From Turneriella sp. (lineage in GTDB: Bacteria > Spirochaetota > Leptospiria > Turneriellales > Turneriellaceae), in assembly GCA_965279515.1 (NCBI GenBank), contig CBDIID010000003.1, positions 1,952,001-2,016,000 of the forward strand: DNA of 64,000 nt, written 5' to 3'. Within the stretch, counting starts at the first letter, position 1. Each line of letters starts with the position of its first letter. A model generated the notes under the pieces. It was not told where the DNA came from. It did no database searches and saw nothing but the letters and a program-made list of their open reading frames with translations. Shown here piece by piece: positions 14,042 through 48,966 of this stretch. The position numbers and the translations under genes are program-made.

Positions 14042-14165
14042 GTGCTGAGTTTTATCCGGGCCCTCTTACTGAAAGCAAAAACATGCTTCAGAGGCGGTGC
14101 GGACTACGCAAGGGGCTGCCAGCAGGTTGTTTAAAACGGTTCGTTTCGTTCACACCCGGGGATAG

Positions 14166-15224: not shown

Positions 15225-15234
15225 GAAAAAACTC

Positions 15235-17459: not shown

Positions 17460-17483
17460 TTTTTTCTCCTTGTAAATTTTGGG

Positions 17484-18131
17484 TTAAAAAGTCATGGCAA
17501 CGCTCAGAAGGGGTTGCACGCTTAAGGCACTCGCCGAATAATCCGTACTTGCCCCGCCGCCGCTGGCCGCCTGGCTGACGGTCCAAAAAAAATACGAGAA
17601 ATTCACCGCGCCACCGACAAAGATATGGGTGGCGATTTCATAATCGTATCCCACCCGCAAAGCGGCGAGCGGACTGACTGCTGTGTACGTGGTCGCCGTT
17701 GCCCCCGAAATCTTGAGCAGGTTTATGCTCGCGCCGAGACCGAGACCCACGTAGAGATTTTTTACTGGAAAATACCGCGCATACGCTGCGACAGGCACCT
17801 GGGTAAGCTGGGTCGTATTCGTCGCAGAACCGATCGTAGCATTATTCTTGTAGGTAACCTGGTATCCGCCGGATATCCCCAATTGAGAGCTACTGTTACC
17901 GTACCACAGGGTTACGCCAAACGCCGGCGAAAGCACGGCACCGTTATCGGAGCCATAGACCGTCTCAACCGCAGAAGCGTATGAGCTTTTTGTGGCGTAA
18001 TTGATACCGCCATAAACCTGACCGATAAGATTCGCAGAGCGCCAAAACTCGTGGGGTGCTGGCTTGGTTTCTGCGGACAGCGTTCCAAAACCGGCAAATA
18101 TTGAACATAGAAAAATAATTCGTAATTTCAT
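17484..18131 (-). CDS. Small outer-membrane beta-barrel protein
   Basis: GAGG RBS before ATG 18131, signal peptide, amphipathic strands (YVGLGLG, LRVGYDY), C-terminal Phe. Confidence 0.7.
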   Translation of the reverse strand: MKLRIIFLCSIFAGFGTLSAETKPAPHEFWRSANLIGQVYGGINYATKSSYASAVETVYGSDNGAVLSPAFGVTLWYGNSSSQLGISGGYQVTYKNNATIGSATNTTQLTQVPVAAYARYFPVKNLYVGLGLGASINLLKISGATATTYTAVSPLAALRVGYDYEIATHIFVGGAVNFSYFFWTVSQAASGGGASTDYSASALSVQPLLSVAMTF

Positions 18132-18249
18132 AAATTCCTCGTAATTAAAAATTTTTGATGATCGCGCACACCGGAAGTGAGCAAACAAAACGCCTGACCA
18201 CGCGACTCAATGGCGCGGGCTTTAAAGCGGAAATTGCTACTTGTGTGCG

Positions 18250-18639
18250 CTAAGCCCGGGGGGGCGGAGTTTCAATGTCGGCAAGGTATGAAATGTAAAG
18301 AGGAGAGCTGATTTGAATGGCGGAAACATGGTATTGCACCGCGGTTAATCCCACCTGATTGCCCGTGAATACCCAGCGCGCGAACGCTGGCAGCACAGAA
18401 TCGTCGGCTTCGTCGGCGCAGGGATGGTCGGCTTTCAGAATTTTCGCCTTTGCCATGGCCTTGTTCAGCCTGTTGCATCCGCAGGGGCAATCTTTGCCCT
18501 TTTGCACTTTCTGCTTTGTATGAACGCAGAGAAAATATTTCGGTTGCTGCGCCGTAGCAACTTCAAAAGCACCAGCGAGCTGAGCAATAAACAGCGTGAG
18601 GCCAAAGCCGTGCAAGATTTTACACCGGAACACGCGCAT
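18250..18639 (-). CDS. Putative metal-sensing leader/arrest peptide 1 (DUF2946/CutF/CruR-analogous)
   Basis: Signal-like N-terminus, CVH...CPCGC...C, C-terminal DIETPPPRA; first gene of an MbnPH operon. Confidence 0.72.
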   Translation of the reverse strand: MRVFRCKILHGFGLTLFIAQLAGAFEVATAQQPKYFLCVHTKQKVQKGKDCPCGCNRLNKAMAKAKILKADHPCADEADDSVLPAFARWVFTGNQVGLTAVQYHVSAIQISSPLYISYLADIETPPPRA

Positions 18640-18701
18640 GCGTCCAGAATTGATGGCGAGACGCTCCGTCAAGAGATATAAAGATCTTTTATTTCACTTG
18701 T

Positions 18702-19793
18702 TTACCCTGCCTCGTTGTGGTTGTGGTGAGAGTAAAGGCTGAAATTCCATGAAACGCCGAAATTCAGCCTGCCCTCGACTTTCTGCTGCGGCTCGTTCAA
18801 CATCTGCAAAACCGGAAATTCTTTGGAGATAAAACAGCCGAGTTCGAGCGGCAGATTCAAACGCATACCCACAGTCCAGAACGTGATAAGACCCCCACTG
18901 TTAACAATTATCGCGTCATGGTCGCGGGACTTCATCATATAACGCGCGGTTAACTCGGTGAAGGTAAAGAGTTTCGTGCGATCGAGATCAAATGCCCTGA
19001 ACGAAAGCGCGACGCCGCCGTCGATGCGGTCTCCGATTTTATAGGTCTTGTAATAGCCGCGGTAGATATAACTGCCGCTCGCGGTCAGTGTGAAGACATT
19101 CGCAAATTGTTTACTGGCTGCAAGACCCGCCATAAAATCTACGCTCCCACTGCCGGGTGTCGCCGACGGATCGAGAGAAAACTGATCTGTTCCCCCGGCG
19201 CCCGAGACCACATGATAGCTCGGCTGCGGAATGTTGCCGCCCGCAACCTGCGCAGCGGGTAGAGAATTCAAGGCCACCGACTCGCTGGCGCCCGCGAGGT
19301 TGCCGGTGGGTAACTTGACCCCGCCCAACCCCGCGAGGGTCCAGCCTGCGCCGGAGAAAAATTTCACCTTGCCATTCAGCCAGAGGTCGGTGAGACCCGC
19401 GACATTTCCCGCGTCGATGAGCTTGTAGGCAGTATTCGAATCAAGCACGCCCTCGCGTAAGCGGTGCCCGTAATACCACCCGATCGTCGCCGATGCGTCG
19501 AGCCATGAGAGAATGCCATAACCCAAAGTCACGTTCGAGATCGACCCCAGGCCCAGCGTGTCGATATGCGATCCCGCCGTCTTCATCTTCTGTGTCGCGT
19601 CTGAGATCGCCACGTCAGGGTATTCTGCGTACGAAGTAAAACTCTGCATAATGGAGAGCGAGAAATGATGGCGCTCAATCGTATCGGGCATGATCACGCT
19701 GCCGGTGGCCCCCGTCGTTCCGGGCCCATGGTCGGCGTGTACGAAACTTTGCAGCAGGGATAGAAACAAAAAAACGGAGAGAATATTTTTCAT
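18702..19793 (-). CDS. Outer-membrane beta-barrel transporter, mature N-terminus DHGP, His-rich C-tail
   Basis: Signal peptide VHA|DHGP, GLTDLWL.GK, VKLPTG, PGSGSVD, NSGG; ends HHNHNEAG. Confidence 0.78.
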   Translation of the reverse strand: MKNILSVFLFLSLLQSFVHADHGPGTTGATGSVIMPDTIERHHFSLSIMQSFTSYAEYPDVAISDATQKMKTAGSHIDTLGLGSISNVTLGYGILSWLDASATIGWYYGHRLREGVLDSNTAYKLIDAGNVAGLTDLWLNGKVKFFSGAGWTLAGLGGVKLPTGNLAGASESVALNSLPAAQVAGGNIPQPSYHVVSGAGGTDQFSLDPSATPGSGSVDFMAGLAASKQFANVFTLTASGSYIYRGYYKTYKIGDRIDGGVALSFRAFDLDRTKLFTFTELTARYMMKSRDHDAIIVNSGGLITFWTVGMRLNLPLELGCFISKEFPVLQMLNEPQQKVEGRLNFGVSWNFSLYSHHNHNEAG

Positions 19794-19815
19794 ATAATTT
19801 CCTTGAAATAAAACA

Positions 19816-20988
19816 TTATGGATTGTTCGATGACCCCTTCGGCCAGGGGTTCGAGAATTTGGGATTCGTCACAAATTCCGTATCGGTGAGGCTACGCAGA
19901 AATTCTATCAGGTCGCTTTTGTCGCCAGCAGTAAAACTGCCACTAAAGTTCTTTACCAGCGGATTCTTGCGCGTGTTGAGAGCCCCGTCGCCATCGAAAC
20001 CGGCGCCTTTACCGGTTACATTGCGGCCGCCGCGCTTATAATGCTCGATCACATTATCGAGAGTATCGATCGAACCGTCGTGCATATACGGCGCCGTGAG
20101 TTCGATATTTCTGAGCGTCGGTGCCTTAAAGCTGCCGTTATCAGCGACATTGCCCGTCACGAGGTTGAGGCCGCTGTTGCCGCTCGGGAAGACATTGGCG
20201 TTGCCAACGTTATAGATCCCATTGTTCAGAAACTGGATGTCGGCCGCTACCTTGCTGTAATAGTCTTCGGCGCTCGAAAAGGTAATACCCGCATGGCAGT
20301 GAAAACAATCCGCGGTTTCACCAAAAAAGAGGTTCATACCACGCTTTGCCGCTGCGCTCATCGCCGTCTTATCGGTGCCCGTGATATACTTGTCGTATGG
20401 AGATTTGCCGCTGATCAGCGTACGCTGAAAGGCCTCGAGCGCATCGCGTATGTGAGCGACAGAAATCGTCGGGGCATCCTTGGCAAAGGCGGCATTAAAG
20501 AGACCAACGTATTTGTCATCGGCCGCAAGCCGCGTCACGACTGTAGCTTCCATACCCGCAAGCCCCAGCTCGACCGGCGTCGTACCAAAGAGCGGCACAT
20601 TTGCCTGTACATTGAGCCGTGTCTGCAATGAATTCGCCCAGGTCAGCACCGGCTGGTACGCGAGGTTAATCAGCGACATCGAGTTGCGCGGATGCGCCTC
20701 ACCTGTCGAGCCGATGCCCACGGTGAGGCCGTCTGAGAACGCCTTGTTCTGGTGGTGGCAGCCTGCACAGGCCTGCGTCTGGTTACCTGACAGGCGTTTG
20801 TCGTAGAAAAGATGGCGACCCAGATCGACCTTCTCGTTGGTCATCGGGTTATTTTCAAATTCGCGTGGCCGTGGGAAACCGGGGGGGAGATCCCACTTAA
20901 ATGCGCTGGGCTCCTGGATGTATTTGAAATCCAGGTTCTGGCAGCCGACGGCCACGAGGGCCAGAGCGAAACTCAATACCGTACGCAT
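19816..20988 (-). CDS. MbnH-like di-heme enzyme, lipoprotein
   Basis: CAGCH, CFHCH, FKAPTLRNIELTAPYMHDGS; clear paralog of 15235..16488. Confidence 0.9.
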   Translation of the reverse strand: MRTVLSFALALVAVGCQNLDFKYIQEPSAFKWDLPPGFPRPREFENNPMTNEKVDLGRHLFYDKRLSGNQTQACAGCHHQNKAFSDGLTVGIGSTGEAHPRNSMSLINLAYQPVLTWANSLQTRLNVQANVPLFGTTPVELGLAGMEATVVTRLAADDKYVGLFNAAFAKDAPTISVAHIRDALEAFQRTLISGKSPYDKYITGTDKTAMSAAAKRGMNLFFGETADCFHCHAGITFSSAEDYYSKVAADIQFLNNGIYNVGNANVFPSGNSGLNLVTGNVADNGSFKAPTLRNIELTAPYMHDGSIDTLDNVIEHYKRGGRNVTGKGAGFDGDGALNTRKNPLVKNFSGSFTAGDKSDLIEFLRSLTDTEFVTNPKFSNPWPKGSSNNP

Positions 20989-21972
20989 CTATTCTACCCT
21001 GAAGAAGACCTGGCCCGAGGTAGGGTAAACAGTGGGAGATCCCGCACTGCTCGCAGTTAAGCCGCGCGCGGTGGATGACCCCGTATAAGAGAAGTCGACA
21101 CCCCAGTTGTTGAGTACGGCCTTACACTCGGGATCGCTGCGGTCAGAGTGACAGCCCGGCTGCGTGCCCCCGGTATTCGCGATCGAGAAATCCGTGTCTT
21201 TATAGAGCTCTTTCGCGTCGGCGACCACTGTCTGCCCGTAAGTGAAGTTCAATTCTATTGCCGGCCGGTTCGATGTGTCGCAGACAATGTCGGGCGGCGA
21301 CGCGAAGGTATCACAATCGATACTGCCCAAATGCGTGAAAAACGGATTGTACGTGTTTACGTTGAACTCCACGACCGCATGTTTGTAGCCGGTCGTCCAG
21401 CTCCAGAACATATACGTCACGTTGAGCGGCGCATTGGTGTTGCCGACGCCATTCTGATTGAGGTTCTGCGGTACGCCGAGCTTGAAGCGTAGCTTCGTAA
21501 ACGTGAGCGCCTCGCTCGCGGCGATGGTGCCACGCACCGTGGTATTCGTACCGGCATTACCCTGTGCAGCGCACTGCGTACTAGCGGCGGCATTCTCAAA
21601 ATCGAGCAGCGCGAGGTTCTGGTACTGGTAGGCGGCATCTTGAGTGAGGGTGACGGCGACTTCGCTGCCATTGGCCCTCACGAAACGCACGTCGTGCACA
21701 AAGAAGCGGAAATCTTTGGGCACGAGCGTCGCTCCGCCGCCAGCGCCGACACCGGAATAACTGGCCGTCGAACAATCGAAGACCTGCGTCCCGACCTTGG
21801 CAGCAAACTGTATCGTCACATTTTGCTGGGGTACGGAGCTGCCCGAACCCGAGCCCGCCGAAGACCCCGCTTCGGCTTTCTTTTTTTCTTCATCAATCGC
21901 CTGCAATATTTTATTGTCTGCGCATGCACTCAGCGAAAGAAAAAGTGCGGCGAAAAATAGATATATTTTCAT
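20989..21972 (-). CDS. MbnP-family copper-binding lipoprotein
   Basis: Lipobox LSAC, DFRFFVHDV, LLDFEN, FWSW, CDTSNRP, GCHS...PEC. Confidence 0.88.
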   Translation of the reverse strand: MKIYLFFAALFLSLSACADNKILQAIDEEKKKAEAGSSAGSGSGSSVPQQNVTIQFAAKVGTQVFDCSTASYSGVGAGGGATLVPKDFRFFVHDVRFVRANGSEVAVTLTQDAAYQYQNLALLDFENAAASTQCAAQGNAGTNTTVRGTIAASEALTFTKLRFKLGVPQNLNQNGVGNTNAPLNVTYMFWSWTTGYKHAVVEFNVNTYNPFFTHLGSIDCDTFASPPDIVCDTSNRPAIELNFTYGQTVVADAKELYKDTDFSIANTGGTQPGCHSDRSDPECKAVLNNWGVDFSYTGSSTARGLTASSAGSPTVYPTSGQVFFRVE

Positions 21973-21980
21973 ATCATCTC

Positions 21981-23030
21981 CTAATCCAATCGGAATTCTT
22001 TTCTTTTCAGAAAATTTTCGTCGGTAAGGGTCAGTAAAAACTCTTTGAGGTCGGCTTTATCCTGCGTCGAAAAATGAAATCCGCCTGCCGGTAGTTTGGC
22101 ATCGAGTGTCGCAGACCGCTGAATACCCGATGAATAATGTTCGATCACGGCCTCAAGCGTCGCAAAACGCCCGTCGTGCATGTAGGGCTTTGTCACGGCA
22201 ATGTTGCGCAATGTGGGAGTGCGGAATTTGCCGATGTCTTCGTTCTTGCGGGTGATACGAAACCGGCCCATGAGCTGACCTTCGTGGTCGGGGGGATATT
22301 TGGTATCGAGACCGTTGTTGTGATAACCATTATCGGTCAACAGCGGGCCGTTATGACACACGGCGCATTTGCCGGTATACAGATTGCGCCCCCGTGCTTG
22401 TGCGTCGTTGAGCATGCCCTCTTGTCTCAGCACACGATCATAGAGCGAATCGAAAGAAACGAGGGTTCGCACGAATTGCGCCAGCGCCTGCAGCATGTTT
22501 GTGATAGACACCTGCTGGTCGGGAAACGCCTTTTCAAATGCGCGGCGGTAAGCACCGTCAGCCCTGAGCTTATCGAGCGAAACGCCGATCGGTTGTCCCA
22601 TTTCATCTGCGTTATGCAATGGTCCAATCAGCTGCGACTCAATATTTTTAGCACCGCCATCCCAGAATAAGCCGTTGTTCGACCAGGCGAGGTTAATGAG
22701 AGCCGGAGAGTTGCGCGTCGCCGGTTTGCCCGACACGCCGCTCTTCGCCAATGCGACGCCATCGCTGAACGCCAGCGATTGATCGTGACAGGTCGCGCAG
22801 CTGACTTTGTCATTGGCAGAAAGCCTTGGCTCATAAAACAGCCTGCGCCCGAGCGCGATAATTTCCTTTCGGAATCTATTGGTATCAGGCTCGGGCAACG
22901 GCCCCAGAAAGCGCAGTGTTTTGGGATGTGCATATTCGTGCACGGCAAGCACCGGATTTTCAGACCGGCAAGCGATCACGAACAGCGCACCCCAAAGCGC
23001 GGCAAGCCGCGCTTTGTTGGTCACGCGCAT
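21981..23030 (-). CDS. Di-heme cytochrome c peroxidase/MbnH-like protein
   Basis: LGRRLFYEPRLS, CATCH, FWDG, CAVCH, FRTPTLRNIAVTKPYMHDG. Confidence 0.88.
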   Translation of the reverse strand: MRVTNKARLAALWGALFVIACRSENPVLAVHEYAHPKTLRFLGPLPEPDTNRFRKEIIALGRRLFYEPRLSANDKVSCATCHDQSLAFSDGVALAKSGVSGKPATRNSPALINLAWSNNGLFWDGGAKNIESQLIGPLHNADEMGQPIGVSLDKLRADGAYRRAFEKAFPDQQVSITNMLQALAQFVRTLVSFDSLYDRVLRQEGMLNDAQARGRNLYTGKCAVCHNGPLLTDNGYHNNGLDTKYPPDHEGQLMGRFRITRKNEDIGKFRTPTLRNIAVTKPYMHDGRFATLEAVIEHYSSGIQRSATLDAKLPAGGFHFSTQDKADLKEFLLTLTDENFLKRKEFRLD

Positions 23031-23032
23031 GA

Positions 23033-24634
23033 TTACGGTACGCTGGCCGAGGTTACCGAGAACACGTTGTTCTGGTAAGCGTTAGCCAAATTACCCATGA
23101 GCGCCGAATTGGTCGATGCATTGATGTACTTAGGCGACCCGGAAACTGTCGAGGTATTCACACCCGCACCACCATTAACCTGGAACAGTTTCGCCACGTT
23201 TGCCCGAACGTTAATCACCGCATTCTTGCCTTTGGTTAGCGTTATGCTCGCAGGAAAAGTTAAGGCTGTCAGGCTGCGATAATTTGCGTTTGCGCCGATA
23301 TCGAAGCCAAAATTGACAGAACCGCAACTCACGCACTGCCCGGTAATTTGTGAAAACAGGTAACTACTATTCCACATCCAGGTATACGTTGCCATATCAC
23401 GGTGAATATGCAGCTCTCCTGCTTGCAGGCTTAGGTTGTTGTTATAGGTCGAGTCTACACCAACCGAAAACTGGATGGCTGTGTAAGTCCCTGATGGCAC
23501 ATCGGCAATCGAAATTTGCTCACGGTTGGCCGCCGCAATCGTCATACCGCTATTGATGTTGCCTGGGCTAATCGCACTGTTTGTTGTCATCAGATAGTAA
23601 CTACCCGGCACGGAGTATTGCGTTGTGTCCGCTTTGGTAAGTTTAACGTTGCTTATCCAATAGCGAAAACGCGTAAAACGCAACGTGTTACTGTGATCAT
23701 CGGTATACGTCGTATTCAGCGCAAAGGTGGTGCCGTTAAAATCCTTGGCGACGTTAATTGTCGCAGTGCCGACATCGGCTTCAGAAACCGCCGTGGTAGT
23801 GGCGCTTACAAGGCTTACCGCAGAAGCAAAGTTTGCGGCTACGGTACTCATCTGGCCGGCATTATTGAAGCCGTTGATAGCACGCTTTGTAACACCCGTA
23901 TCGACGCTAACTGTGCCAATATCGATACCCGCGAACAATTTTTCTACGTCAATCTTTGCGACAATCGTTGGGGCAGAGGTCGCACTGACAGTGATATTCG
24001 TGGGAAAGCTCAGTGTTTTAGTCTGATAATTTGCATTCGTACCAAATTCGAGCGCAAAAGCCTGCTGCCCTGAGCAGCTTGTGCAGGTTCCCGAAGTTTT
24101 GCCAAAAATGTAGCTGGTAACCCACGACCACTCGATGTTGCCCATATGAGAAAAGAGGTGAAGTTCCCCTGTTCTCAAGCTCAGATCGTTATTATACGTT
24201 GAATCGACGCCTACGCTGAATTTAATCCCTTTATAGCTTCCGACAGGGACTTTTTTCAGGGTCACATTTTCCCTATTTCCCGCCGCCAGATTAAAGTTAG
24301 GCACGCGTTCGCCAGTCGTATCGCCCGTGACAGCATTATTCTGCGAAAGCAGGTAATACGCGTCCGGCACCGCAACTTCGGAATTGTCGTCCTTGATGAA
24401 TTTAACGTTCGATACCCAATAACGAACCTCGTTGATGGTGATTGTGTTTCCCGCTGCTGTCGTATACGATGTGCCGAGAGCAAAAGCCGCCCCATTGAAA
24501 TACTTCGGCATTTGCAGCGAAACCTCGCCCGTTTCGCTGGCAGATGCAGCGGTGGTACCAGATTCCTCTGAATTTTTTGCGCAGGCACCCAATAGCGCGC
24601 TGCAAAGTAAGATAAGATAAAATTTCGATTTCAT
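23033..24634 (-). CDS. Tandem two-domain MbnP-like lipoprotein
   Basis: GGAGG RBS before ATG 24634, lipobox LGAC; two internal repeats each with RYW.SNVK, F(S)VGVDSTYN, WxW (EWSW / TWMW) and CxxC. Confidence 0.8.
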   Translation of the reverse strand: MKSKFYLILLCSALLGACAKNSEESGTTAASASETGEVSLQMPKYFNGAAFALGTSYTTAAGNTITINEVRYWVSNVKFIKDDNSEVAVPDAYYLLSQNNAVTGDTTGERVPNFNLAAGNRENVTLKKVPVGSYKGIKFSVGVDSTYNNDLSLRTGELHLFSHMGNIEWSWVTSYIFGKTSGTCTSCSGQQAFALEFGTNANYQTKTLSFPTNITVSATSAPTIVAKIDVEKLFAGIDIGTVSVDTGVTKRAINGFNNAGQMSTVAANFASAVSLVSATTTAVSEADVGTATINVAKDFNGTTFALNTTYTDDHSNTLRFTRFRYWISNVKLTKADTTQYSVPGSYYLMTTNSAISPGNINSGMTIAAANREQISIADVPSGTYTAIQFSVGVDSTYNNNLSLQAGELHIHRDMATYTWMWNSSYLFSQITGQCVSCGSVNFGFDIGANANYRSLTALTFPASITLTKGKNAVINVRANVAKLFQVNGGAGVNTSTVSGSPKYINASTNSALMGNLANAYQNNVFSVTSASVP

Positions 24635-24638
24635 ATTT

Positions 24639-24750
24639 CCTCCAAATTCCAAAATCTGCCGTAAACTTACGGCGCGCACACGGCTCGCCTTAGCTGACCG
24701 CGCGCAAATAGCCTGAGATTTTGCTCAGGGTATGTTATGTGAATTTAGAG
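24639..24750 (-). promoter_or_regulatory. Anti-SD/SD attenuator structure between leader 2 and tandem MbnP gene
   Basis: mRNA CUCUAAAUUC (spans leader stop) pairs 10 bp (one G-U) with GAAUUUGGAG overlapping the GGAGG SD. Confidence 0.65.
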
Positions 24751-25137
24751 CGCCCGGGGGGGCGGAGTTTCAATGTCGGCGAGATAGGATTTATAGAGAG
24801 GAGAACTGATTTGAATTAGCGAAATACGATACTGCACCGCGGTTAATGCCACTTCATTGCCCGTGAACACCCAGCGCGCGAAAGCTGGCAGCACAGAATC
24901 TTCGGCCTCATCGGCGCAAATACGGTCAGATTTCAGAATTTTCGCTTTTGCCATTGCTTTTTTTAACTTACTGCAACCGCAGGGGCAAGCTTTGTGCTTT
25001 TCAATTTTTTGTTTGGTATGAACGCAGAGATAATATTTGGGTTGCTGCGCGTGGATTACCTCAAAGGCACCGCTGATTTGCGCGAAAAACAACACCAAAC
25101 CGAAGCCGTGAAGAACTTTGTAGCGCTTTAGCCCCAC
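24745..25137 (-). CDS. Putative metal-sensing leader/arrest peptide 2
   Basis: Close paralog of 18250..18639 (CVH...CPCGC...C...DIETPPPRAL); GTG 25137 aligns with the paralog's ATG. Confidence 0.72.
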   Translation of the reverse strand: MGLKRYKVLHGFGLVLFFAQISGAFEVIHAQQPKYYLCVHTKQKIEKHKACPCGCSKLKKAMAKAKILKSDRICADEAEDSVLPAFARWVFTGNEVALTAVQYRISLIQISSPLYKSYLADIETPPPRAL

Positions 25138-25258
25138 AGCTGAAACCCCGCCCAAACAAGTGCCCGGTCAACCATTTTTCAAGATGAGTCGCGAGTCAAA
25201 AAATCCGGACACATTGTTTGCACAATGTGTCCGGTAGTGTTAGCAGTTGAAACGAGAT

Positions 25259-26605
25259 TTATTTCACAGAGAGAATGTAAGCCGCAAGCGCCTCGAAATC
25301 CTTCGCCTGCAACTGGTCTTCGAAACCCGGCATCTGTGGATAGCCTGGCCTTTTTTTGCCCGGCTTGCGTATCCACTGCATGAGTTGGGCTTCTTTACCC
25401 TTGTAAATCGAGACCATTTCGACCACGGGTGGGCCCACGAGCTTGGTCTTGATCTGGTGGCAGCCGACGCAATAGTTGTCGAAAAGCTTTTGCCCCTCGC
25501 CCACGAGAGGATTCTCTTTCGCCGGCCCGGCCTCGGGTTTCTTCTGCGCCGCGACTGCCGCATTAGCCTCGGCCACAAGCTTCTCGTATTCAGCCGTGCG
25601 TTCGGCGACGAGTTTCTTGTGTGGCCCCAAAGCGGTCTCGCGAATCACATGACGCCCCGACACCATGAGGATAACCACGATAGTCAGCGCAATCACGATC
25701 TTCGAAAAACGGCTGCCGATGGCCTCGGCAGGGCCAGAAACCGACTTCCACATCCAGACGAGCGTGAGAATGCCGACGACGACGGCAGGCGCCAGAATGG
25801 CGAGCAACGCCCAACTGATTGCCTTAGAAGGCAAGGTCAAGAGCACCAGCGGTCCCGCGACAAACTGCAGCAGCGTCGCCATGAAGGCGAGCGAGAGCAT
25901 GCGCTTGCGAATCTCATAGCGCGACAGATTGACAAACTTCTCTGCGTGCGGATATCCCTCGCGGCCAAAATACCAGAACAGAAAAAGTCCGGTCACTGTC
26001 AGCGAGGCTAACACGAAGTGAAAATAACGCGGGAAAACATTCGGCAATGCAAGCGCCGAGAAGAATCCCGAGACACTGCCCCATTTTTCCGGGTAGAGCA
26101 TCAGGTTGATGTTCGTCAGAAAAATCAACGGTATCGTCAGAAAGATCGCCGATGCAGCGCCGATCATCGCGATATGCAGCCCCTTGTTATCCTTGAGGAT
26201 ATCCCACAGATACTTGTGCGGGTACGTGAGTAAAAAACCCACCGTCACGAGCGGCACAATCGCAATCCAAAAGAGTCCCGTCAGCGCATTCGCCGAATAA
26301 AAATACACCGTGTAGAGCGTATTGATGAGCAACAGCGGAGCTACCCCCATCACGACGGCGAGACTCTTGTTGACGGTGATCGTCTTGGCAATCTCATGCG
26401 CAAGCTGGTCATAGTCTTTCTCTTTAAGACCCTTGAGCTGTGCGAAAAATGTCAACAGTGTTCCGCCCAGCATCAGGTTCACGAAAAGAATATGCACCAG
26501 AAACGAGAAGACCAACAGACCGACTGCGAGCCACTCGGGTAGCGGCAAGGGTAGCGGAATGTCTTTTGGCACCGGCACCGCGGCGAGAAATAGCGCGAAA
26601 TTCAT
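25259..26605 (-). CDS. Polytopic membrane protein (CydA'-like) with C-terminal c-type cytochrome
   Basis: HILFVN, RYFHF in TM helices; C-terminal CVGCH...KLVGP...MP. Confidence 0.72.
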   Translation of the reverse strand: MNFALFLAAVPVPKDIPLPLPLPEWLAVGLLVFSFLVHILFVNLMLGGTLLTFFAQLKGLKEKDYDQLAHEIAKTITVNKSLAVVMGVAPLLLINTLYTVYFYSANALTGLFWIAIVPLVTVGFLLTYPHKYLWDILKDNKGLHIAMIGAASAIFLTIPLIFLTNINLMLYPEKWGSVSGFFSALALPNVFPRYFHFVLASLTVTGLFLFWYFGREGYPHAEKFVNLSRYEIRKRMLSLAFMATLLQFVAGPLVLLTLPSKAISWALLAILAPAVVVGILTLVWMWKSVSGPAEAIGSRFSKIVIALTIVVILMVSGRHVIRETALGPHKKLVAERTAEYEKLVAEANAAVAAQKKPEAGPAKENPLVGEGQKLFDNYCVGCHQIKTKLVGPPVVEMVSIYKGKEAQLMQWIRKPGKKRPGYPQMPGFEDQLQAKDFEALAAYILSVK

Positions 26606-28002
26606 TTGCGCACCTCTGCCTCTGGCAGCCGCACACCGACTTCCTGTGCACCCTCGGCATTATCGGGATATTTTGCTGCGGCGAGAATGTAACTCGCGAG
26701 CGCACCCAACTCGGCCTCATTGCCAGGAAAAGGCGGCATGAAGTAGCGCGACTTATGCATGTTGCGCATATAGCCGACCATGGCATCTGCATTGAAATTA
26801 TCTTTACCCAAAAGGTTCTCAAACTTTTTCACCACAGAGTTGATGCCGCCCGAAGTGTGGCAGCGGCTGCATGCAAGCATAAAGATGTCTTTGCCCGATT
26901 CTACAGCATTTGCAGATGTAACCTCGCGGTACTTCACATAGGTCGCATGCTTCAAGATGCCGTCACGGTTTAAGAGCGCCATCTCTTTCGGCCGCACCAT
27001 GTTCGAATACATGTAATCGGCGATCACATAGGGTTTGCGAATGAATTCACGCGTACGCTCGAAGGTGACCATCAGCGTAATCGCCAGCCCTATCGGTAAC
27101 ACAAGAGCCAAGGCCGGTATACGCCAGCGGCCAATGATGCCCAGCACAGCGACAAAACCGATGACGCCTGCGGCGACTGCCATGATAACGAGCAGATTGT
27201 CATACCATGACGAGAACTCCATCGTGCCGATCGCGACCGACATGTTCTGCCGCATCATATCGGGTATGACCCAATAATAATAGATCGAACCGATGATGAG
27301 AAATGGCGTCCACGCGAGTACCCACGAACCCGTAAGACGTACGGCAGATCGTCTGAGCGCGTCATTATTCCGCACAAAAAACGGAATCAGGGCAAAAACG
27401 ACAGATCCGCCCATGACCATCGCGAGCGGAGTACGAAACGCCAGCTGCGCAGGGTAAACGGGATTCAGAAACCCCTTAATCAGCGACTGGTCGGTACGCC
27501 AGCTGCCCGGGTCCATCATGAAACTCAATATCGCGACAATGATCGCCATGGTGACCCAAGAGGCGATCGAAAGCGCGATGCCGAAGCGAATGTGTTTCCA
27601 TTTTTTCTCTGGTGAAGCATTTGATCTGCGCCAGCTGAGAAAATAAATCAGAATGAGGATGACTTCGGTGACGAAGACAATCCACTCCACGAACCAGGCG
27701 GCGAAAAAGACCCGTATCAGGCTGCCAATCGATGCAGGGCTGACAAGGCTCGCCGAGAGCCAGATGCCGACGCCGGTCATGGCGCCGAGCGATGTGGTGA
27801 TGATGAATGCGAAGAACATGACCTTGCGGGCCAGTTCATCCCATTCTTTGCTGTTATTCTTGTACCCGACGTATTCGAGATACGTCACATACGGTATGAG
27901 GCCCACCGCCAAAGCGTGGTTAATCACCACGTGCAGAATCGCAATGATCGCGATTAAAATGCGGTTGCCCATAAAATCCAAATGAAATATGGGAAAGTCC
28001 AT
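26602..28002 (-). CDS. Cytochrome bd subunit I (CydA)-like membrane protein with C-terminal c-type cytochrome
   Basis: HVVINH, GAMTGVGIW, W..EWIVFVTE, E..REFIRKPY (cf. CydA GRQPW region); CSRCH...MPPF. Confidence 0.75.
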   Translation of the reverse strand: MDFPIFHLDFMGNRILIAIIAILHVVINHALAVGLIPYVTYLEYVGYKNNSKEWDELARKVMFFAFIITTSLGAMTGVGIWLSASLVSPASIGSLIRVFFAAWFVEWIVFVTEVILILIYFLSWRRSNASPEKKWKHIRFGIALSIASWVTMAIIVAILSFMMDPGSWRTDQSLIKGFLNPVYPAQLAFRTPLAMVMGGSVVFALIPFFVRNNDALRRSAVRLTGSWVLAWTPFLIIGSIYYYWVIPDMMRQNMSVAIGTMEFSSWYDNLLVIMAVAAGVIGFVAVLGIIGRWRIPALALVLPIGLAITLMVTFERTREFIRKPYVIADYMYSNMVRPKEMALLNRDGILKHATYVKYREVTSANAVESGKDIFMLACSRCHTSGGINSVVKKFENLLGKDNFNADAMVGYMRNMHKSRYFMPPFPGNEAELGALASYILAAAKYPDNAEGAQEVGVRLPEAEVRK

Positions 28003-28173
28003 AGTTTGAACTCCTTATAGTTAATAATGTATAGGTTAAGCCGCGCGCAATAATCGGTGTTTATATGCTGCGCCATCAGGTACAGCGACGTCACCGGCGC
28101 GAATCACGGCAGTGAGAGGGCATACCTGTGGCTGCGTGCGATTCAGGCTGATTCAATGCGCGGCAGGCGGCGC

Positions 28174-28575
28174 TTAGGCCGCAGCAGATCGGGGTGGAGG
28201 CGGAGTTACTTCAGCGATAATACTATGATAAAATGGATCAATACTGGGGACAACCACAGTGAAATAACGGGGAGTCGGCACCGAAAACGGTAAGTATATG
28301 CCGCCGAAGCGATCAAAATTCGGCATGTGAGCAATATCGTCATCGGGGCTGGCACAGACATCGTCGGCGTCGACGAGCACCGCGATTTTTTTGGGTGACT
28401 TATGCTTGTGCCCGCACGGACAGGGATTTCCCTTCTGTACGCGCACCTTCATGTGGGGACACATATAATATGTTTTCACCTGTAGATTCGAAACGAGGTC
28501 GGGCACAGCCGACAATTGCAATGTAAAAAGAAAAAGACCACAAAGATGAATCGGCGTGAGAAAGCGGATCAGCAA
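28174..28575 (-). CDS. Putative metal-sensing leader/arrest peptide 3 (start uncertain, ORF extends to 28641)
   Basis: Hydrophobic N-region, CPH...CPCGH...C, C-terminal EVTPPPPRSAAA. Confidence 0.65.
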   Translation of the reverse strand: MLIRFLTPIHLCGLFLFTLQLSAVPDLVSNLQVKTYYMCPHMKVRVQKGNPCPCGHKHKSPKKIAVLVDADDVCASPDDDIAHMPNFDRFGGIYLPFSVPTPRYFTVVVPSIDPFYHSIIAEVTPPPPRSAAA

Positions 28576-28661
28576 GTTATGACCAAAGACTTTTTTCGTA
28601 CAACCGGTAAAGAAATTTCGCGAAGACTTTACGACGTTCAAAGCAAGAAGACTCTGACAAC

Positions 28662-29237
28662 ATGAAAATTGCCCTGCTACTTGTTTTCTCTACTCTGCCG
28701 CTCACCGCTCAAACAAACGCGGGGTTAAAACTCGGCGGCACGCTCATGAACGGCAAAGAGGGTACACGCGCGATCGTCGAGTTGGGTGACGGCAGAACCA
28801 CGCAGGTCTGCGAAGCGGGCAAAGCTTGCTCGAAAAATGCCTGCGACTGCGAGGTCGCCGGTTATAAAGTCGTGCATATCGAAGCGCGCAAGGTAACGCT
28901 GCGGCGCGGCGGCGAACGTTTCACGCTGACCCTCGATGGCCTGCGCCCCGAAGGACAAACAGGTAAATATGCGGGCACAATTACCCGGGACTTTTCCCGC
29001 GCAAAACTTCAGGAAACCCTGAATACTCGCGGCGAGAAGGCCACGGACGTGTTACACAAACTGCTCGCTGGCGCCGATGTCAGGCCGACAGACACCATCA
29101 AAACCGTGCAAGGACATCCCCTTGAAAGAGTAAAGTGGGGTACGGTGCACGGGAGCATTCAGGCCGCCGAACAGGTGGCCATTGAAATCGAGCGCGAAGG
29201 CAAGCTGATACTCTTACAGCTGCGCATGACGCAATAA
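28662..29237 (+). CDS. Secreted GspC-HR-like / PDZ-like protein with four-Cys insert
   Basis: LKLGGTL...RAIVE...GYKVVHIEARKVTL..GGE..TL.L resembles GspC/PilP HR fold; CEAGKACSKNACDC insert. Confidence 0.5.
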   Translation: MKIALLLVFSTLPLTAQTNAGLKLGGTLMNGKEGTRAIVELGDGRTTQVCEAGKACSKNACDCEVAGYKVVHIEARKVTLRRGGERFTLTLDGLRPEGQTGKYAGTITRDFSRAKLQETLNTRGEKATDVLHKLLAGADVRPTDTIKTVQGHPLERVKWGTVHGSIQAAEQVAIEIEREGKLILLQLRMTQ

Positions 29238-29248
29238 AAGCCAAGAAC

Positions 29249-29875
29249 TCAGCCGGGACAGACCGGGCTCAGCTTAGCGGTAATTTTCACATCGATATCG
29301 GGCCACAGCTTGCTTTGGCCGTCTTTACCCTTATGCAGGTCTTTGCAGGCCAGGTTCAAGGCCGCGAGCGGTGAAAGGGCGTTGAATTCAGCGATATCAA
29401 GCCTAAAGGCGACTTCGAGCCCTGCACCGTCGACGCGGCGCACCGTAGCCGAGACCTTTTTCTCGATGCCGTTGATTTTCAGGAGCAGGGTGGCGTTGTT
29501 TGCGCTCACCGATTCGACGCGTGCCCTGATCTCCCCCTTATTTTTCATCGCTGCGAAAAACGCGTAATAAATCTTCTTATCGCGGTCGGGATTATTCGTA
29601 TTCACGCTCGCGGCATCGACGATGAATTCGGCTTCTGCAAAGACCTCTTCGGGTTTCGTGGCGGTGCGCGCATTTTCAGTTCGAATCGAATTAAAAGTTC
29701 CCGAAACACCGAGGCGCTCTGTAAACTTGTATGCAGTCCATTGCAGCTTTGCCTGCGTGGGGTCGAAATCAAAGCGGCAGAGGCTGTAATCCGGTTTTAT
29801 TTCTGCTTTCTTGCAAGACCAGAAGAGTGCCAAGATAAGTACAATGCCAACAATGTGACTCTTTCGCAAAATCAT
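29249..29875 (-). CDS. YceI-family lipid/polyisoprenoid-binding lipoprotein
   Basis: Lipobox FWSC, LQWTAYK...VSGTF, SVNTNNPDRD, LKINGIEK. Confidence 0.8.
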   Translation of the reverse strand: MILRKSHIVGIVLILALFWSCKKAEIKPDYSLCRFDFDPTQAKLQWTAYKFTERLGVSGTFNSIRTENARTATKPEEVFAEAEFIVDAASVNTNNPDRDKKIYYAFFAAMKNKGEIRARVESVSANNATLLLKINGIEKKVSATVRRVDGAGLEVAFRLDIAEFNALSPLAALNLACKDLHKGKDGQSKLWPDIDVKITAKLSPVCPG

Positions 29876-29954
29876 AGTTGGGAAAAGCCTCTGCGATACC
29901 GCGCGTAAAGCCGGTTTTCACAACAGCGGTTTACGCTGTATCCATAAGATAGAT

Positions 29955-30326
29955 TTGCTGCGGAGCGCCGTGCTGAGAAAGATTACCGCCACGCTGATTT
30001 GCCTCTTGCTTCTTGCAACTGCCACCGAGGCGGTCGGACTTATCTCACACTCGACCGGCGTACTCAAATGCCCCAGCTGCAAAATGAAAATGCAGAAAAT
30101 CGACGACTGCCGCTGCCATAAGAAAAAACCTGTTTCCGCGGCGAAAATCCACGACCCCTGCGGCGACAACGAGGGGGATTTCCACATTTCCTTCGACCGG
30201 GTGCAGGGTGTTGCGGCGCCCGAAGTCTTTGTGCCGGCCGCTTTTGTCAGTACATACCTCTCTCTCTCTTATCGCTACCCCACCGGTATCACGAGCGATA
30301 TTCCGCAGCCGCCGCCGCGGCGTTAA
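29955..30326 (+). CDS. Putative metal-sensing leader/arrest peptide 4
   Basis: Signal-like N-terminus, CPSC...CRCH...HDPC, C-terminal DIPQPPPRR; directly upstream of a TonB-dependent receptor. Confidence 0.72.
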   Translation: MLRSAVLRKITATLICLLLLATATEAVGLISHSTGVLKCPSCKMKMQKIDDCRCHKKKPVSAAKIHDPCGDNEGDFHISFDRVQGVAAPEVFVPAAFVSTYLSLSYRYPTGITSDIPQPPPRR

Positions 30327-30395
30327 CTCCTGCCCAACAAACAAATAACCACTGAAAGTGGTGCATCCGCGCTAAGGCGCGAGATAAAGGAGTTA
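30324..30395 (+). promoter_or_regulatory. Anti-SD/SD attenuator structure between leader 4 and the TBDR
   Basis: TAACTCCT (30324-30331, includes leader stop) is the exact reverse complement of AGGAGTTA (30388-30395, SD); two internal hairpins. Confidence 0.7.
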
Positions 30396-30400
30396 TGTTT

Positions 30401-32587
30401 ATGCGATTATTTACGATCAAAGCCGTTGCCGTTCTTCTCATCACGAGCAGCGCAATCTGGGTACAGACACCCGAAAAGAAAGATGAAAAAACTAAAAAAA
30501 ATCCCGTGGAAATTCCCGCTAACGCAGCGGATCCTGAAGGTGTAAAAACCATCGCGGTTGAAAAAGGCGAGACTAAACCTCTCGAAGAAGAAGAAACCCT
30601 GCCCGACGTCGTCGTCACGGCCACGCGCGAAGAAGAAAAACGCCGCGATGTGCCGATGTCGATCGGCAAGATCAAACGCGACTCGATTAAAGATACGAAG
30701 CCGATCCATCCATCCGAGCTGATGAACCAGTCGCCGGGTGTGTTTGTGAACACGACAAGCGGTGAGGGACACCAGACAATGATCCGCCACCCGATCACGA
30801 CCGGCTCGGTGTATCTTTACCTCGAAGACGGTGTGCCGACGCGCTCACCAGGATTTTTCAACCATAACGCGCTCTTCGAAATTAACGTGCCACAAGCCGG
30901 CGGTATTGAAATCATCAAAGGCCCTGGTTCAGCGCTCTATGGCAGCGATGCACTCGGTGGGGTTGTCAACGTGCTGACGCGCCCTGTGACAAAAGACCGC
31001 GAAATCGACCTGAGCTTCGAATACGGCGGTTTCGGCTGGAAAAGGCTTTTGGCCTCGGCCGGCGAAAAGTTTGGCGACCATGCCATACGCGTCGATGGAA
31101 ACATGACCGATTCGAAGGGCTGGCGTGACGGTACGAAATACTCGCGCCAAAGCGGTACGCTGCGTTGGGATGCAGTCTTCGGCAAACATAAGTTCAAGAC
31201 CGTCGTCACGGCTTCGAATATCGACCAGCAATCGGCAGGCGCCGCGGCATTGCGCGAGGCGGATTATCTGAATAATTCGCAGGCGAACTACATGCAATTC
31301 TCCTACCGCCGCGTCAAAGCCGTACGTGTTTCAACTCAGTACGATTACGAAATCAGCCAGGGCAACAAGCTATCGGCCATTCTCTACGGACGCTACAACG
31401 AGATGGGGCAATTACCGAATTATATCGGCGCACAGACAACCCAGCGGGAAAACAACTTGCGCAATGCCTCGGCGGGATTGCTTTTCAAGCACCTGCTCGA
31501 TATTCAGCTTTTTCACTCAAAGCTGATTTCGGGTATCGACGCCGATTATTCGCCGGGAGTCTTTAACGAATGGAATGTAACGACTACAAAATCCGGCGAT
31601 TATTTTACGAGTTACACAACCGGCGCATTGCAATACGACTATGATGTTAAATTTTATCAGGCATCGCCGTTTGTCCAGCTCGAATCATCGCCGCTTACGC
31701 GAAAACTAAAACTGCAACTCGGTGCACGGTATGACTACATGGGTTATATCTATAAGAATAACCTGAGCGTCATTCAAACCGGTAATACACGCCGCCCCGA
31801 AGATGCATCGCCCAGCTTCAACCACCTCTCGCCTAAAGCGGGCGTCGTGTACGACTTCTTCGCCGAACTCAATGTCTTCGCGAGTTACCGCCACGGCTTT
31901 CGTGTGCCACAGCAAAGCGACCTGTTTCGCCAGGGCAGCGCCAATTCGGCCCTTGGCATCAAACCGATTAAAATCGATAGCTTTGAAATCGGTGTGAGGG
32001 GTGCGGCGCTGAAAGAACGCCTGCAATACGAGGTGACAGGCTTCTACGCCGAAAAGCGCGACGATATTGTCAGCGTCAGCCTTGCCCCCGGTGTCACAGA
32101 AACACAAAACGCGGGCACGACTTCGCATAAGGGTATCGAAATTGGCCTCGAAGCCGAGATCTTTAAGAAGCTGCTCTGGTTTGTGGGTAATGTGACTTAC
32201 GCCGAACACAAATACGTCACCTGGACGCCATCGTCGACCGCCATTCTCAACAACTATTTTCAACCCCAGGCGCCGACGATATTCGGCACAGTCAGCCTGA
32301 AAATTGTGCCGGTAAAAGGTTTACAGATCAGCCCCGAGTGGGTTTATCTGGGGCGTTACTTTATGGATGATTTGAATACGACGGTTTATCCCGGACACAG
32401 CATCTTCAACATCCGGGCAAAATATGAAGTCAACGAGCGCATCGGTGTTTTCACACGCATCCATAACCTGACGAATGTGCGTTATGCCGATATTGCTTCA
32501 TACAATTCCCTGCAGGCCGGCACATTTCCCGGCTATGTACCGGGCGAACCGTTCTCGGTCATCGCCGGCATGTCTTACAGCCTATGA
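30401..32587 (+). CDS. TonB-dependent outer-membrane receptor
   Basis: TonB box DVVVTATR, plug IEIIKGPGSALYGSDALGGVVNV, C-terminal HNLTN; ATG 30401 best spaced from AGGAG (ORF track start 30395). Confidence 0.93.
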   Translation: MRLFTIKAVAVLLITSSAIWVQTPEKKDEKTKKNPVEIPANAADPEGVKTIAVEKGETKPLEEEETLPDVVVTATREEEKRRDVPMSIGKIKRDSIKDTKPIHPSELMNQSPGVFVNTTSGEGHQTMIRHPITTGSVYLYLEDGVPTRSPGFFNHNALFEINVPQAGGIEIIKGPGSALYGSDALGGVVNVLTRPVTKDREIDLSFEYGGFGWKRLLASAGEKFGDHAIRVDGNMTDSKGWRDGTKYSRQSGTLRWDAVFGKHKFKTVVTASNIDQQSAGAAALREADYLNNSQANYMQFSYRRVKAVRVSTQYDYEISQGNKLSAILYGRYNEMGQLPNYIGAQTTQRENNLRNASAGLLFKHLLDIQLFHSKLISGIDADYSPGVFNEWNVTTTKSGDYFTSYTTGALQYDYDVKFYQASPFVQLESSPLTRKLKLQLGARYDYMGYIYKNNLSVIQTGNTRRPEDASPSFNHLSPKAGVVYDFFAELNVFASYRHGFRVPQQSDLFRQGSANSALGIKPIKIDSFEIGVRGAALKERLQYEVTGFYAEKRDDIVSVSLAPGVTETQNAGTTSHKGIEIGLEAEIFKKLLWFVGNVTYAEHKYVTWTPSSTAILNNYFQPQAPTIFGTVSLKIVPVKGLQISPEWVYLGRYFMDDLNTTVYPGHSIFNIRAKYEVNERIGVFTRIHNLTNVRYADIASYNSLQAGTFPGYVPGEPFSVIAGMSYSL

Positions 32588-33741: not shown

Positions 33742-33742
33742 A

Positions 33743-43819: not shown

Positions 43820-44263
43820 TTACCAGATACCGCCAAAACGGTGCATAACCCCGGTCAATGCAAACAGGATAGCCAGGATCGTCACAGCCGTGATATGCGC
43901 AGCGAGGCTATTCAGGGATTTCGGCCCCAATGCCGGAAGAATGCGCAGCCGGGCATGCGCCGCGAGAATGACCGTCAGCAAAAGCAGAGATAGCTTGAGT
44001 GTCACCGTCCGCGAGACAGCACTCGAAAACGTAAACCATAGGGATAAATCCGGCAACTGGTGGTAGGCCATCCAAATGCCGGTCGCCACAAGCGTAACCA
44101 GAGCGGGGATGCCGATTTTTTCAAAATGACTTTCGAACTCCGTAATCTTCATAGGATTGCGGCTTTTGAGGGCAGGTAGCAGGATCACGAAAAAAAGCAC
44201 GATATGACCGCCCGTCCAGATAGTGGCGGCGATGAGATGCAGGGCGATGATGGGTGCGTACAT
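43820..44263 (-). CDS. CopD-family inner-membrane protein
   Basis: LHLIAATIWTGGH, four TM helices, LK..L...LA.HAR. Confidence 0.8.
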   Translation of the reverse strand: MYAPIIALHLIAATIWTGGHIVLFFVILLPALKSRNPMKITEFESHFEKIGIPALVTLVATGIWMAYHQLPDLSLWFTFSSAVSRTVTLKLSLLLLTVILAAHARLRILPALGPKSLNSLAAHITAVTILAILFALTGVMHRFGGIW

Positions 44264-44268
44264 AAAAT

Positions 44269-48965: not shown

Positions 48966-48966
48966 T

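Follow-up and report, generated by a model that had tools for sequence, protein, structure and literature searches.

Paralogous Cys/His and polyproline open reading frames upstream of MbnP, cytochrome and TonB receptor genes in Turneriella: a candidate family of export-coupled, metal-sensing leader peptides

Background

Short proteins whose own synthesis adjusts the expression of a neighbouring gene to copper have been described in Bordetella and Rhodobacter. CruR (Bp2923) of Bordetella pertussis, the prototype of DUF2946 (PF11162), combines a CXXC motif with a RAPP motif, the two being spaced 45 residues apart, within 1-2 residues, across more than 2000 members; lengthening this spacer by 5 residues impairs copper control, and CruR acts by Rho-dependent termination, its signal peptide and elongation factor P (EF-P) being dispensable (PMC9426467). 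CutF of Rhodobacter capsulatus, from the cutFOG operon, carries a Sec signal, four Cys residues and a C-terminal PPP, stalls on copper, depends on EF-P and opens a stem-loop by which cutO's Shine-Dalgarno (SD) sequence is masked (PMC9973294; bioRxiv 10.1101/2025.02.05.636593). A rule-defined set of 'CutF-like' proteins numbers 5,334, with Spirochaetota described as 'scarce' (PMC9973294), and a further group of nascent chains, SecM, MifM and VemP, monitors the secretion machinery and controls sec genes (bioRxiv 10.1101/2025.02.05.636593). Here we report on four paralogous open reading frames (ORFs), termed leaders 1 to 4, in a stretch of 64,000 nucleotides (nt) of Turneriella sp. (contig CBDIID010000003.1, positions 1,952,001 to 2,016,000; hereafter the window), and on the family to which they belong, whose members are candidates for leader peptides of this kind.

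The genes next to these ORFs include those for MbnP and MbnH. In the titles and abstract beginnings of the literature on MbnP/MbnH and on Turneriella copper, we found no leader peptides placed before mbnP; MbnP is unmentioned in the main text of PMC9973294, and the literature searched yielded no description of MbnP/MbnH regulation outside methanotrophs.

Results

All four ORFs are present where the first-pass annotation of the window had placed them (Table 1). They are paralogues, leaders 2, 3 and 4 showing 78, 32 and 28% identity to leader 1 in the alignment. Invariant across the four are M1, L14, L16, C38, K42, K47, C51, C53, A65, C74, D80, F86, R88, Y115 and a terminal PPPR, F86 and R88 forming an F-x-R motif, and 1, 2, 4 and 1 codons separate PPPR from the stop in leaders 1 to 4, respectively. 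The Pro run begins 51, 51, 51 and 50 positions after the last Cys, which leaves 50, 50, 50 and 49 residues in between. The alignment thus bears out the shared Cys/His cluster, the F-x-R motif and the PPPR lying 1-4 codons before the stop, all proposed in the first-pass annotation, and its hand count of the spacer was reproduced exactly. Leader 1 is also open from an alternative TTG start, to 18672. Ahead of the TTG start of leader 4 (29910-29957, + strand) no SD is evident, and a TAAGAT hexamer lies 5 nt upstream.

The genome (4.9 Mb, 3 contigs) holds four copies of the family only, all of them in the window and within 12 kb. When the ORFs of the window were filtered in the style used for CutF (60-200 amino acids, PP in the last 15 residues, a hydrophobic N-terminus and at least 2 Cys), exactly four passed, namely leaders 1 to 4. 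Genome-wide, in a crude gene call, PPP within the last 11 residues occurs in 25 of 4374 ORFs, the four leaders included.

We then aligned 50 members of the family, of 114-141 amino acids each. Four Cys and one Pro of the ending are invariant, and F86 is nearly so. The putative ligands follow the pattern C-x-H (leaders 1-3) or C-x2-C (leader 4), 9-10 residues, C-x-C and a further Cys, so that among the four window leaders a CXXC at the first ligand site is found in leader 4 (CPSC) only. Counted from the last Cys, the final Pro run begins 50-52 positions further on in 43 of 48 members, and the near-constant spacing suspected from the four window leaders extends to the family. Likewise, F86 stands 41-44 residues ahead of the C-terminus in 46 of the 50. 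The conserved Cys half itself takes insertions and deletions, the span from C38 to C74 being 30, 31, 33, 34, 35 or 36. Information content is 2.1-3.2 bits over residues 33-88, 0.8-1.5 over residues 89-120 and 2.6 over residues 121-128; the spacer is thus fixed in length and free in sequence, with low sequence conservation. AlphaFold2, run on the 50-row alignment, returned a low-confidence model (mean predicted local distance difference test score 66, predicted template modelling score 0.25) with an N-terminal helix, a small hairpin at residues 35-46, where the first ligands lie, a short helix, and coil without secondary structure over residues 67-129.

The proline endings differ between subtypes (ETPPPR, PPPPR, PQPPPR, DPPDxPS, PPVPPG and KPG), all within the last 9 residues. 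PP is present in 48 of the 50 members, including the four window leaders, and the remaining two end in RPG or KPG; in member P0004 a C-terminal extension puts PP more than 15 residues from the end. PPP, PPD, DPP and PPG are the classic slow motifs of EF-P-dependent translation. At the other end of the protein, 45 of the 50 members have a putative signal peptide according to a home-made rule (positive n-region, 12-residue hydrophobic window and small-x-small site) used in place of a trained predictor. Counted back from the Pro run, the F-x-R motif lies at about 38 residues, the last Cys at about 51 and the knuckle formed by the other ligands at about 72-87. General figures are 30-40 residues for the ribosomal exit tunnel and a further 15-25 for the translocon; judged against these, the geometry of the leaders fits a chain that spans both.

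A resemblance to SEC-C, the C-terminal motif of SecA (CxCx8C[CH]), was considered and rejected: the CPCG core gave only marginal sequence matches in the PDB, to SecA peptides and YchJ (E 0.13-0.78). The SecA/YchJ-like core is KGKDCPC, at residues 47-53 of leader 1 (18481-18501, - strand) and at the same place in the paralogues. Its ligand order is mirrored, and the likeness is probably a convergence of small Cys knuckles.

None of leaders 1-4 matches a Pfam or NCBIfam model at E<=1. In a word-indexed search, 13 relatives were found for leader 1 and 7 for leader 4 (the window protein being counted in each), none with a Pfam domain. A profile built from 22 sequences and run against 1.84 billion representatives retrieved 20 clusters at E<=0.001, and one built from 50 sequences retrieved 41 proteins, the weakest at E=7e-23, none of which has a Pfam domain and all of which, where named, are called 'hypothetical protein'. 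The family is therefore sharply bounded and unannotated, since nothing falls between E=7e-23 and E=10 with the 50-sequence profile and neither domains nor names attach to its members. By profile search it occurs in all 13 other genomes of the same genus and in the single genome of one sister genus; it is absent from 5 genomes of four other genera of Turneriellaceae and from 14 genomes of six other families of the order, and in a phylum-wide sample 2 of 401 genomes match, both of the same genus. A weak match with an internal stop (G025:C1:285718-285900, E=2.9e-4) is excluded from all counts.

The comparison with the Pfam model of DUF2946, which had been proposed together with the survey of Spirochaetota, was negative. 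PF11162 matches none of the four window leaders at E<=1 and none of 22 further members at E<=10, leaders 1-4 are not among the matches of a search of the whole genome, and none of the 401 genomes of the Spirochaetota sample has a PF11162 match. In a language-model neighbour search of the ESM Atlas, which offers leads and is no test of homology, DUF2946/CzcI clusters made up 4 of the 30 nearest neighbours of leader 1, and 8 and 3 of 30 named clusters for leader 4 (scores 0.93-0.95); clusters of DUF6660 and DUF6769 likewise lay near the family.

The position of the family members was determined in 29 intact loci (28 with wide flanks and one on a short contig) from the window and 14 other genomes. 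In all 29 a same-strand ORF starts 32-283 nt downstream of the leader, and the identity of that gene goes with the subtype of the leader: (i) ETPPPR leaders precede MbnP in 8 of 9 loci, the ninth being window leader 1, where a barrel-like gene without Pfam match sits between leader and MbnP, (ii) PPPPR/T leaders precede a membrane cytochrome c (2/2), (iii) PQ/PY/S-PPPR leaders precede a TonB receptor (4/4, plus one locus cut by the contig end), (iv) DPPDxPS leaders precede a Redoxin/thioredoxin-like protein (7/7), and (v) leaders ending in PPVPPG, xPPG or KPG precede a protein of 277-291 amino acids without Pfam match (6/6). Conservation of the downstream neighbour, raised as a check in the first-pass annotation, thus holds subtype by subtype. 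The upstream neighbours vary between genomes (transglutaminase-like, acyl-CoA dehydrogenase, YceI or opposite-strand genes), and since the downstream target is constant the conserved unit is the leader together with the next gene. The claim that a leader heads every operon can be kept in part. Upstream of leaders 3 and 4 the neighbours lie on the opposite strand, and a terminator-like hairpin separates leader 2 from the cytochrome gene. Leader 1 may lie inside a transcript, because a same-strand gene ends 29-62 nt ahead of it with no predicted terminator between, and some members elsewhere overlap or abut an unrelated upstream gene, for example that of an acyl-CoA dehydrogenase (gap -8 to 24 nt). 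The accurate wording is hence that a leader lies directly upstream of its target, not that it is first in the operon.

Predicted folding of the mRNA points to a link between the end of the leader and the next gene's ribosome-binding site. In 5 of 5 TonB-type loci, RNAalifold pairs UAACUCCU at the stop codon with the SD AGGAGUUA; CTCC directly follows the stop in all five, the remaining intergenic region varying in sequence and in length (72-110 nt). All nine ETPPPR loci use ACT for the Thr ahead of PPP, which yields ACUCC, ACT accounting for 11.6% of Thr codons genome-wide, and the third positions of the neighbouring Pro codons vary. In the TonB-type loci and three KPG-ending loci the anti-SD lies downstream of the stop codon, and the Pro residues are kept nonetheless. 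Across 28 loci, the SD is predicted to pair with the stop window (-24 to +12) at a probability (P) of at least 0.9 in 19, with a mean of 0.84, against 3 of 95 and a mean of 0.21 for other same-strand gene pairs with a recognisable SD in the genome of the window. When a ribosome is masked in at the stall site, the SD of the gene after leader 4 goes from a predicted unpaired probability of 0.18 to one of 0.83, and that of the gene after leader 2 from 0.32 to 0.79. The intergenic regions after leaders 1 and 3 measure 118 and 171 nt; that after leader 3 has 30% C against 23% G, and after leader 1 C and G are about equal. No Rfam family was found at E<=1 in 14000-34000. EF-P and Rho are both encoded in the genome.

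Table 1. Coordinates of the leaders, of predicted RNA elements and of the genes around them (window positions, unless a locus is named)
Feature	Coordinates	Strand	Remarks
Leader 1 (ETPPPR subtype)	18250-18639	-	129 amino acids from the ATG aligned with homologues
Leader 2 (ETPPPR subtype)	24745-25137	-	130 amino acids
Leader 3 (PPPPR subtype)	28174-28575	-	133 amino acids; start codon uncertain, open to 28641
Leader 4 (PQPPPR subtype)	29955-30326	+	123 amino acids; CPSC...CRCH; start codon uncertain
TAACTCCT, leader 4 stop codon plus 5 nt	30324-30331	+	Predicted anti-SD arm (RNAalifold)
AGGAGTTA, SD of TonB-dependent receptor gene	30388-30395	+	ATG at 30401
CTCTAAATTC, arm overlapping leader 2 stop	24741-24750	-	Predicted to pair with SD region of next gene
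GGAATTTGGAG, SD-containing arm upstream of tandem-MbnP gene	24640-24650	-	ATG at 24634
Long hairpin directly after leader 1 stop	18164-18250	-	SD of next gene not predicted to pair with stall site
Terminator-like hairpin between cytochrome gene and leader 2	25205-25234	-	13 bp stem, T-run
Unit after leader 1	14166-18131	-	Four genes (Pfam search)
Barrel-like protein without Pfam match	17484-18188	-	Unit after leader 1; ORF listed with 234 amino acids; SD-preceded ATG at 18131
MbnP	16485-17459	-	Unit after leader 1
MbnH-type di-haem peroxidase	15235-16488	-	Unit after leader 1
Phenol_MetA_deg-like barrel	14166-15275	-	Unit after leader 1
Unit after leader 2	18702-24634	-	Five genes
Tandem MbnP	23033-24634	-	Unit after leader 2; ATG at 24634
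Di-haem peroxidase	21981-23030	-	Unit after leader 2
MbnP	20989-21972	-	Unit after leader 2
MbnH-type peroxidase	19816-20988	-	Unit after leader 2
Barrel-like protein without Pfam match	18702-19793	-	Unit after leader 2; 363 amino acids
Unit after leader 3	25259-28002	-	Two polytopic membrane proteins with C-terminal cytochrome c domains (26602-28002, 25259-26605)
Unit after leader 4	30401-33741	+	TonB-dependent receptor (to 32587), BNR-repeat protein (32584-33741)
YceI protein	29249-29875
ORF of 191-210 amino acids between leaders	28662-29237	+	Window
ORF of 191-210 amino acids between leaders	L005:814-1389	-	Other genome
ORF of 191-210 amino acids between leaders	L042:12038-12670	+	Other genome
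Targets of PPG/KPG-subtype leaders	L040:8045-8878, L038:6239-7114, L056:1763-2596, L049:6503-7336, L051:8003-8836, L025:655-1491

As shown in Table 1, the island around the leaders contains three MbnP/MbnH-type sets (PF20243 with PF03150) and a YceI protein. Further along the window, 43820-54141 (- strand) carries CopD-like, NnrS, SCO1/SenC, FGE-sulfatase-like and multicopper-oxidase plus cytochrome c (NirK-like) genes as well as YaeQ and NorD/NorQ/NorB/NorC-like genes, a Crp-type regulator being encoded on the opposite strand. The cluster, of the denitrification type and with copper demand, adjoins the leader island, and the setting as a whole is one of high copper demand because of its CopD-like, SCO1/SenC, multicopper-oxidase and Nor-like genes.

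Some further features of the neighbourhood were seen by inspection. The two barrel-like proteins at 18702-19793 and 14166-15275 look alike by eye, sharing an ADHGP...TTGA start. An ORF of 191-210 amino acids without Pfam match lies between the cytochrome-type and TonB-type leaders in the window and in two other genomes, and in the window the YceI gene additionally sits between leaders 3 and 4. The target of the PPG/KPG-subtype leaders has a signal peptide and a conserved CG[ML][GH]VCP[LIV]P motif near the mature N-terminus, and its copy in L025 ends in YYF, as outer-membrane barrels do. About 14 kb past the end of the window (G000:C3:2030303-2030675, - strand), a 124-amino-acid ORF with a hydrophobic N-terminus, SCH...KPCCNLHC and a LPPPRRS ending directly precedes a 106-amino-acid signal-peptide protein rich in Cys, His, Asp and Lys; its sequence suggests a fifth leader, similar in kind but of another family, the family profile giving no match. 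At G000:C3:817886-818267 (+ strand), a 127-amino-acid ORF with hydrophobic segments, an acidic run, no Cys and the ending EEIPTPPPLS lies 42 nt upstream of the gene of a 724-amino-acid membrane protein, and is possibly a proline-pausing leader of another sort.

Discussion

The family, the anatomy of its members, their conserved position, the fixed spacer and the predicted pairing at leaders 2 and 4 are direct observations. On this basis we think it probable, at roughly 0.65, that the four ORFs are cis-acting, export-coupled, polyproline-pausing leaders of the CutF/CruR type which control the next gene. Export, metal binding, pausing, the sign of the response and copper as the ligand are what we infer from them; that the ligand is copper, and that metal shuts expression off, are less certain than the cis-acting pause.

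In the mechanism that we propose, (i) the N-terminal signal sequence would bring the nascent leader to the Sec translocon, (ii) the Cys/His knuckle and the fourth invariant Cys would emerge on the periplasmic side, the fixed-length spacer setting these ligands, when the pause occurs, at a distance of some 51 to 87 residues from the peptidyl-transferase centre, (iii) the ribosome would pause on the C-terminal polyproline motif and there cover a C-rich stretch (Pro/Thr codons, or CUCC past the stop) that otherwise pairs with the next SD, (iv) the length of the pause would set the level of translation of the next gene, and (v) metal, most likely copper, on the knuckle would alter the pulling force on the chain and with it the length of the pause. 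The targets resemble genes of copper acquisition, which makes the sign of CruR the likelier one, with pause and expression when metal is lacking and release and shut-off when it is present. For ADR1a, zinc-driven folding of a tiny domain reportedly pulls a chain out of arrest. Going by the folding predictions, unmasking of the SD would be the likeliest read-out for leaders 2 and 4, and leaders 1 and 3 may use another route, such as Rho-dependent termination as in CruR.

A number of results weigh against this interpretation. Leader 3 and a close homologue fail the cleavage-site part of our signal rule, and a stable protein that binds metal could also show so strongly conserved a Cys half. On the side of the RNA, dinucleotide-shuffled stop windows still give a mean P of 0.60 as against the 0.84 observed, so that C-rich composition, in effect the proline codons themselves, accounts for most of the predicted SD pairing; the energy of pairing with a locus's own SD hardly differs from that with the SDs of other loci (-10.24 vs -9.72 kcal/mol; permutation p=0.07), which amounts to no significant locus-specific covariation. 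Masking of the stall site lifts mean SD accessibility across the 28 loci from 0.20 to just 0.48. For leader 3 the pairing is weak (P=0.39; SD unpaired 0.24, and 0.33 on masking), and for leader 1 P is 0.02 and the SD goes from 0.23 to 0.21 unpaired. Finally, sequence searches reveal no link to DUF2946. The idea of a metal-sensing stalling regulon put forward in the first-pass annotation is strengthened by the position of the leaders, the pairing of subtype and target, the fixed spacer modelled as disordered and the predicted pairing at leaders 2 and 4; the predicted SD masking does not extend to leader 1 and is weak for leader 3.

It is above all for these last two leaders that a mechanism wholly of the CruR type has to be weighed, in which the paused ribosome shields a Rho utilization (rut) site, in the 3' end of the leader or the intergenic region, metal releases the ribosome and termination follows, SD masking being secondary or absent. 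We regard this as rather unlikely, although it may apply to at least leaders 1 and 3: Rho is encoded, Rho-dependent control is established for CruR (PMC9426467), and both leaders are followed by long intergenic regions for which SD unmasking is not predicted, the one after leader 3 being richer in C than in G. The intergenic regions are, however, predicted to be highly structured, which is atypical of rut sites, and after leader 1 the excess of C is missing. It appears unlikely, too, that the ORFs are genes for small, stable metal-binding proteins, periplasmic or anchored in the membrane, which would serve MbnP, the TonB receptor and others as chaperones or partners, would act in trans and would have the proline ending for reasons of structure or processing. 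Such proteins would account for the four invariant Cys and the well-conserved N-terminal half, for the signal-peptide-like N-terminus and, by way of protein partnerships, for the presence of one subtype per target; they would not be expected to be modelled as coil from residue 67 to the end with such low confidence, to conserve length and not sequence in the C-terminal half, to change the type of proline motif between subtypes and yet always keep it at the extreme end, or to be encoded directly upstream of the target in 29 of 29 loci and never elsewhere.

Plain translational coupling through the RNA, in which C-rich Pro codons or CUCC mask the SD and any translating ribosome opens it, with neither regulated arrest nor metal sensing, seems to us quite improbable. 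The pairing retained by shuffled stop windows, the lack of significant covariation and the fixation of ACT at a synonymous site all speak in its favour; the invariant Cys, the export signal and the fixed 50-residue spacer are left unexplained by it, and the Pro residues are conserved even where the anti-SD follows the stop. Hardly credible is, lastly, that the ORFs, as MbnA does for methanobactin, supply the ribosomally made precursor of a Cys-derived peptide that binds copper. The adjacent MbnP/MbnH pairs and the conserved Cys bring this to mind, but the genome has its two genes of the MbnB family (PF05114) at C3:1811044 and C3:3895882, even the closer of them being some 141 kb away from the window, and the ORFs, which carry an N-terminal signal for export, are at 117-141 amino acids far longer than MbnA. 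With no MbnB-family gene adjacent, we rejected this explanation.

Returning to export-coupled pausing leaders, a further-reaching version can be put forward tentatively, although we lean against it. Here the leaders would be a family of one spirochaete genus, independently evolved or diverged beyond recognition, in which a constant Cys3His/Cys4 knuckle and a ruler of about 50 residues are combined with an exchangeable arrest module (PPPR, DPPD, PPVPPG or KPG), each version being connected to a target of its own; metal-driven folding of the periplasmic knuckle, beyond the translocon, would be the force sensor, and the same 10-20 nt would encode both the arrest peptide and the anti-SD, since the proline codons and the CUCC at the stop are complementary to the SD. 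The family would then be the first proposed regulator of methanobactin-independent MbnP/MbnH copper uptake in this lineage.

No new principle is established by our analysis, the principle being already known from CutF and CruR. If the leaders do act as proposed, the reach of metal sensing by nascent exported chains widens to take in Spirochaetota, a family missed by the Pfam model of DUF2946 and MbnP/MbnH, and homology-based censuses of such leaders undercount them. Five natural subtypes with one ruler and differing proline endings, together with four paralogues side by side, would offer ready material for comparing the effects of spacer length, of arrest strength and of the ligand set on the tuning of such switches.

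Comparison with known systems

Compared with SecM, MifM and VemP, the leaders would share an exported nascent chain, C-terminal arrest, release by pulling force and unmasking of a downstream SD; those three proteins differ in having neither metal ligands nor a polyproline run.

The likeness to CutF includes a putative signal peptide (by our home-made rule), four Cys, a C-terminal PPP and an mRNA structure masking the SD, here predicted for leaders 2 and 4. By the rules that define 'CutF-like' proteins (Ozturk et al. 2023), all 50 members are shorter than 150 amino acids, all four window leaders have PP in the last 15 residues, and at all 29 loci a same-strand gene follows well within the 1000 nt allowed. 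The CutF protein is not expected to accumulate, and the same is expected of the leaders. There is, however, no detectable sequence relatedness between them. The target of CutF is a copper-detoxifying oxidase that is turned on by copper, whereas those of the leaders look like uptake genes, and the sign is probably opposite; moreover, the predicted masking arm of leaders 2 and 4 overlaps their own stop codon and that of CutF lies within the intergenic region. As CutF itself stalls on a C-terminal PPP (bioRxiv 10.1101/2025.02.05.636593), PPPR in place of RAPP, which had been offered as a mark of a distinct variant, does not set the family apart.

With CruR the leaders have in common a small upstream ORF, an export signal (putative in the leaders), a Cys motif and a proline arrest motif near the C-terminus, which in CruR lies three residues from the end, and, as an additional likeness, leader 4 is directly upstream of a TonB-dependent transporter gene, the targets of CruR serving copper uptake. 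A conserved spacing from Cys to proline is also shared, of 45 residues in CruR and 49-50 in the leaders, and the ruler can no longer count as a novelty, since this spacing is a published hallmark of DUF2946/CruR (PMC9426467). In contrast to CruR, the family has no PF11162 match, ends in [ET]PPPR or similar and never in RAPP, and has four invariant Cys, arranged as C-x-H/C-x2-C...C-x-C...C, instead of a single CXXC; where CruR acts via Rho, two of the four leaders have a predicted helix that would mask the SD. What was said of the CxCG(C/H)-type ligand set and of one family in four paralogous copies still stands. Overall, judged from sequence, the family remains distinct from the described systems in lacking a detectable link to PF11162, in its C-x-H/C-x2-C...C-x-C pattern, in its MbnP and cytochrome targets, and in the clustering of its four copies.

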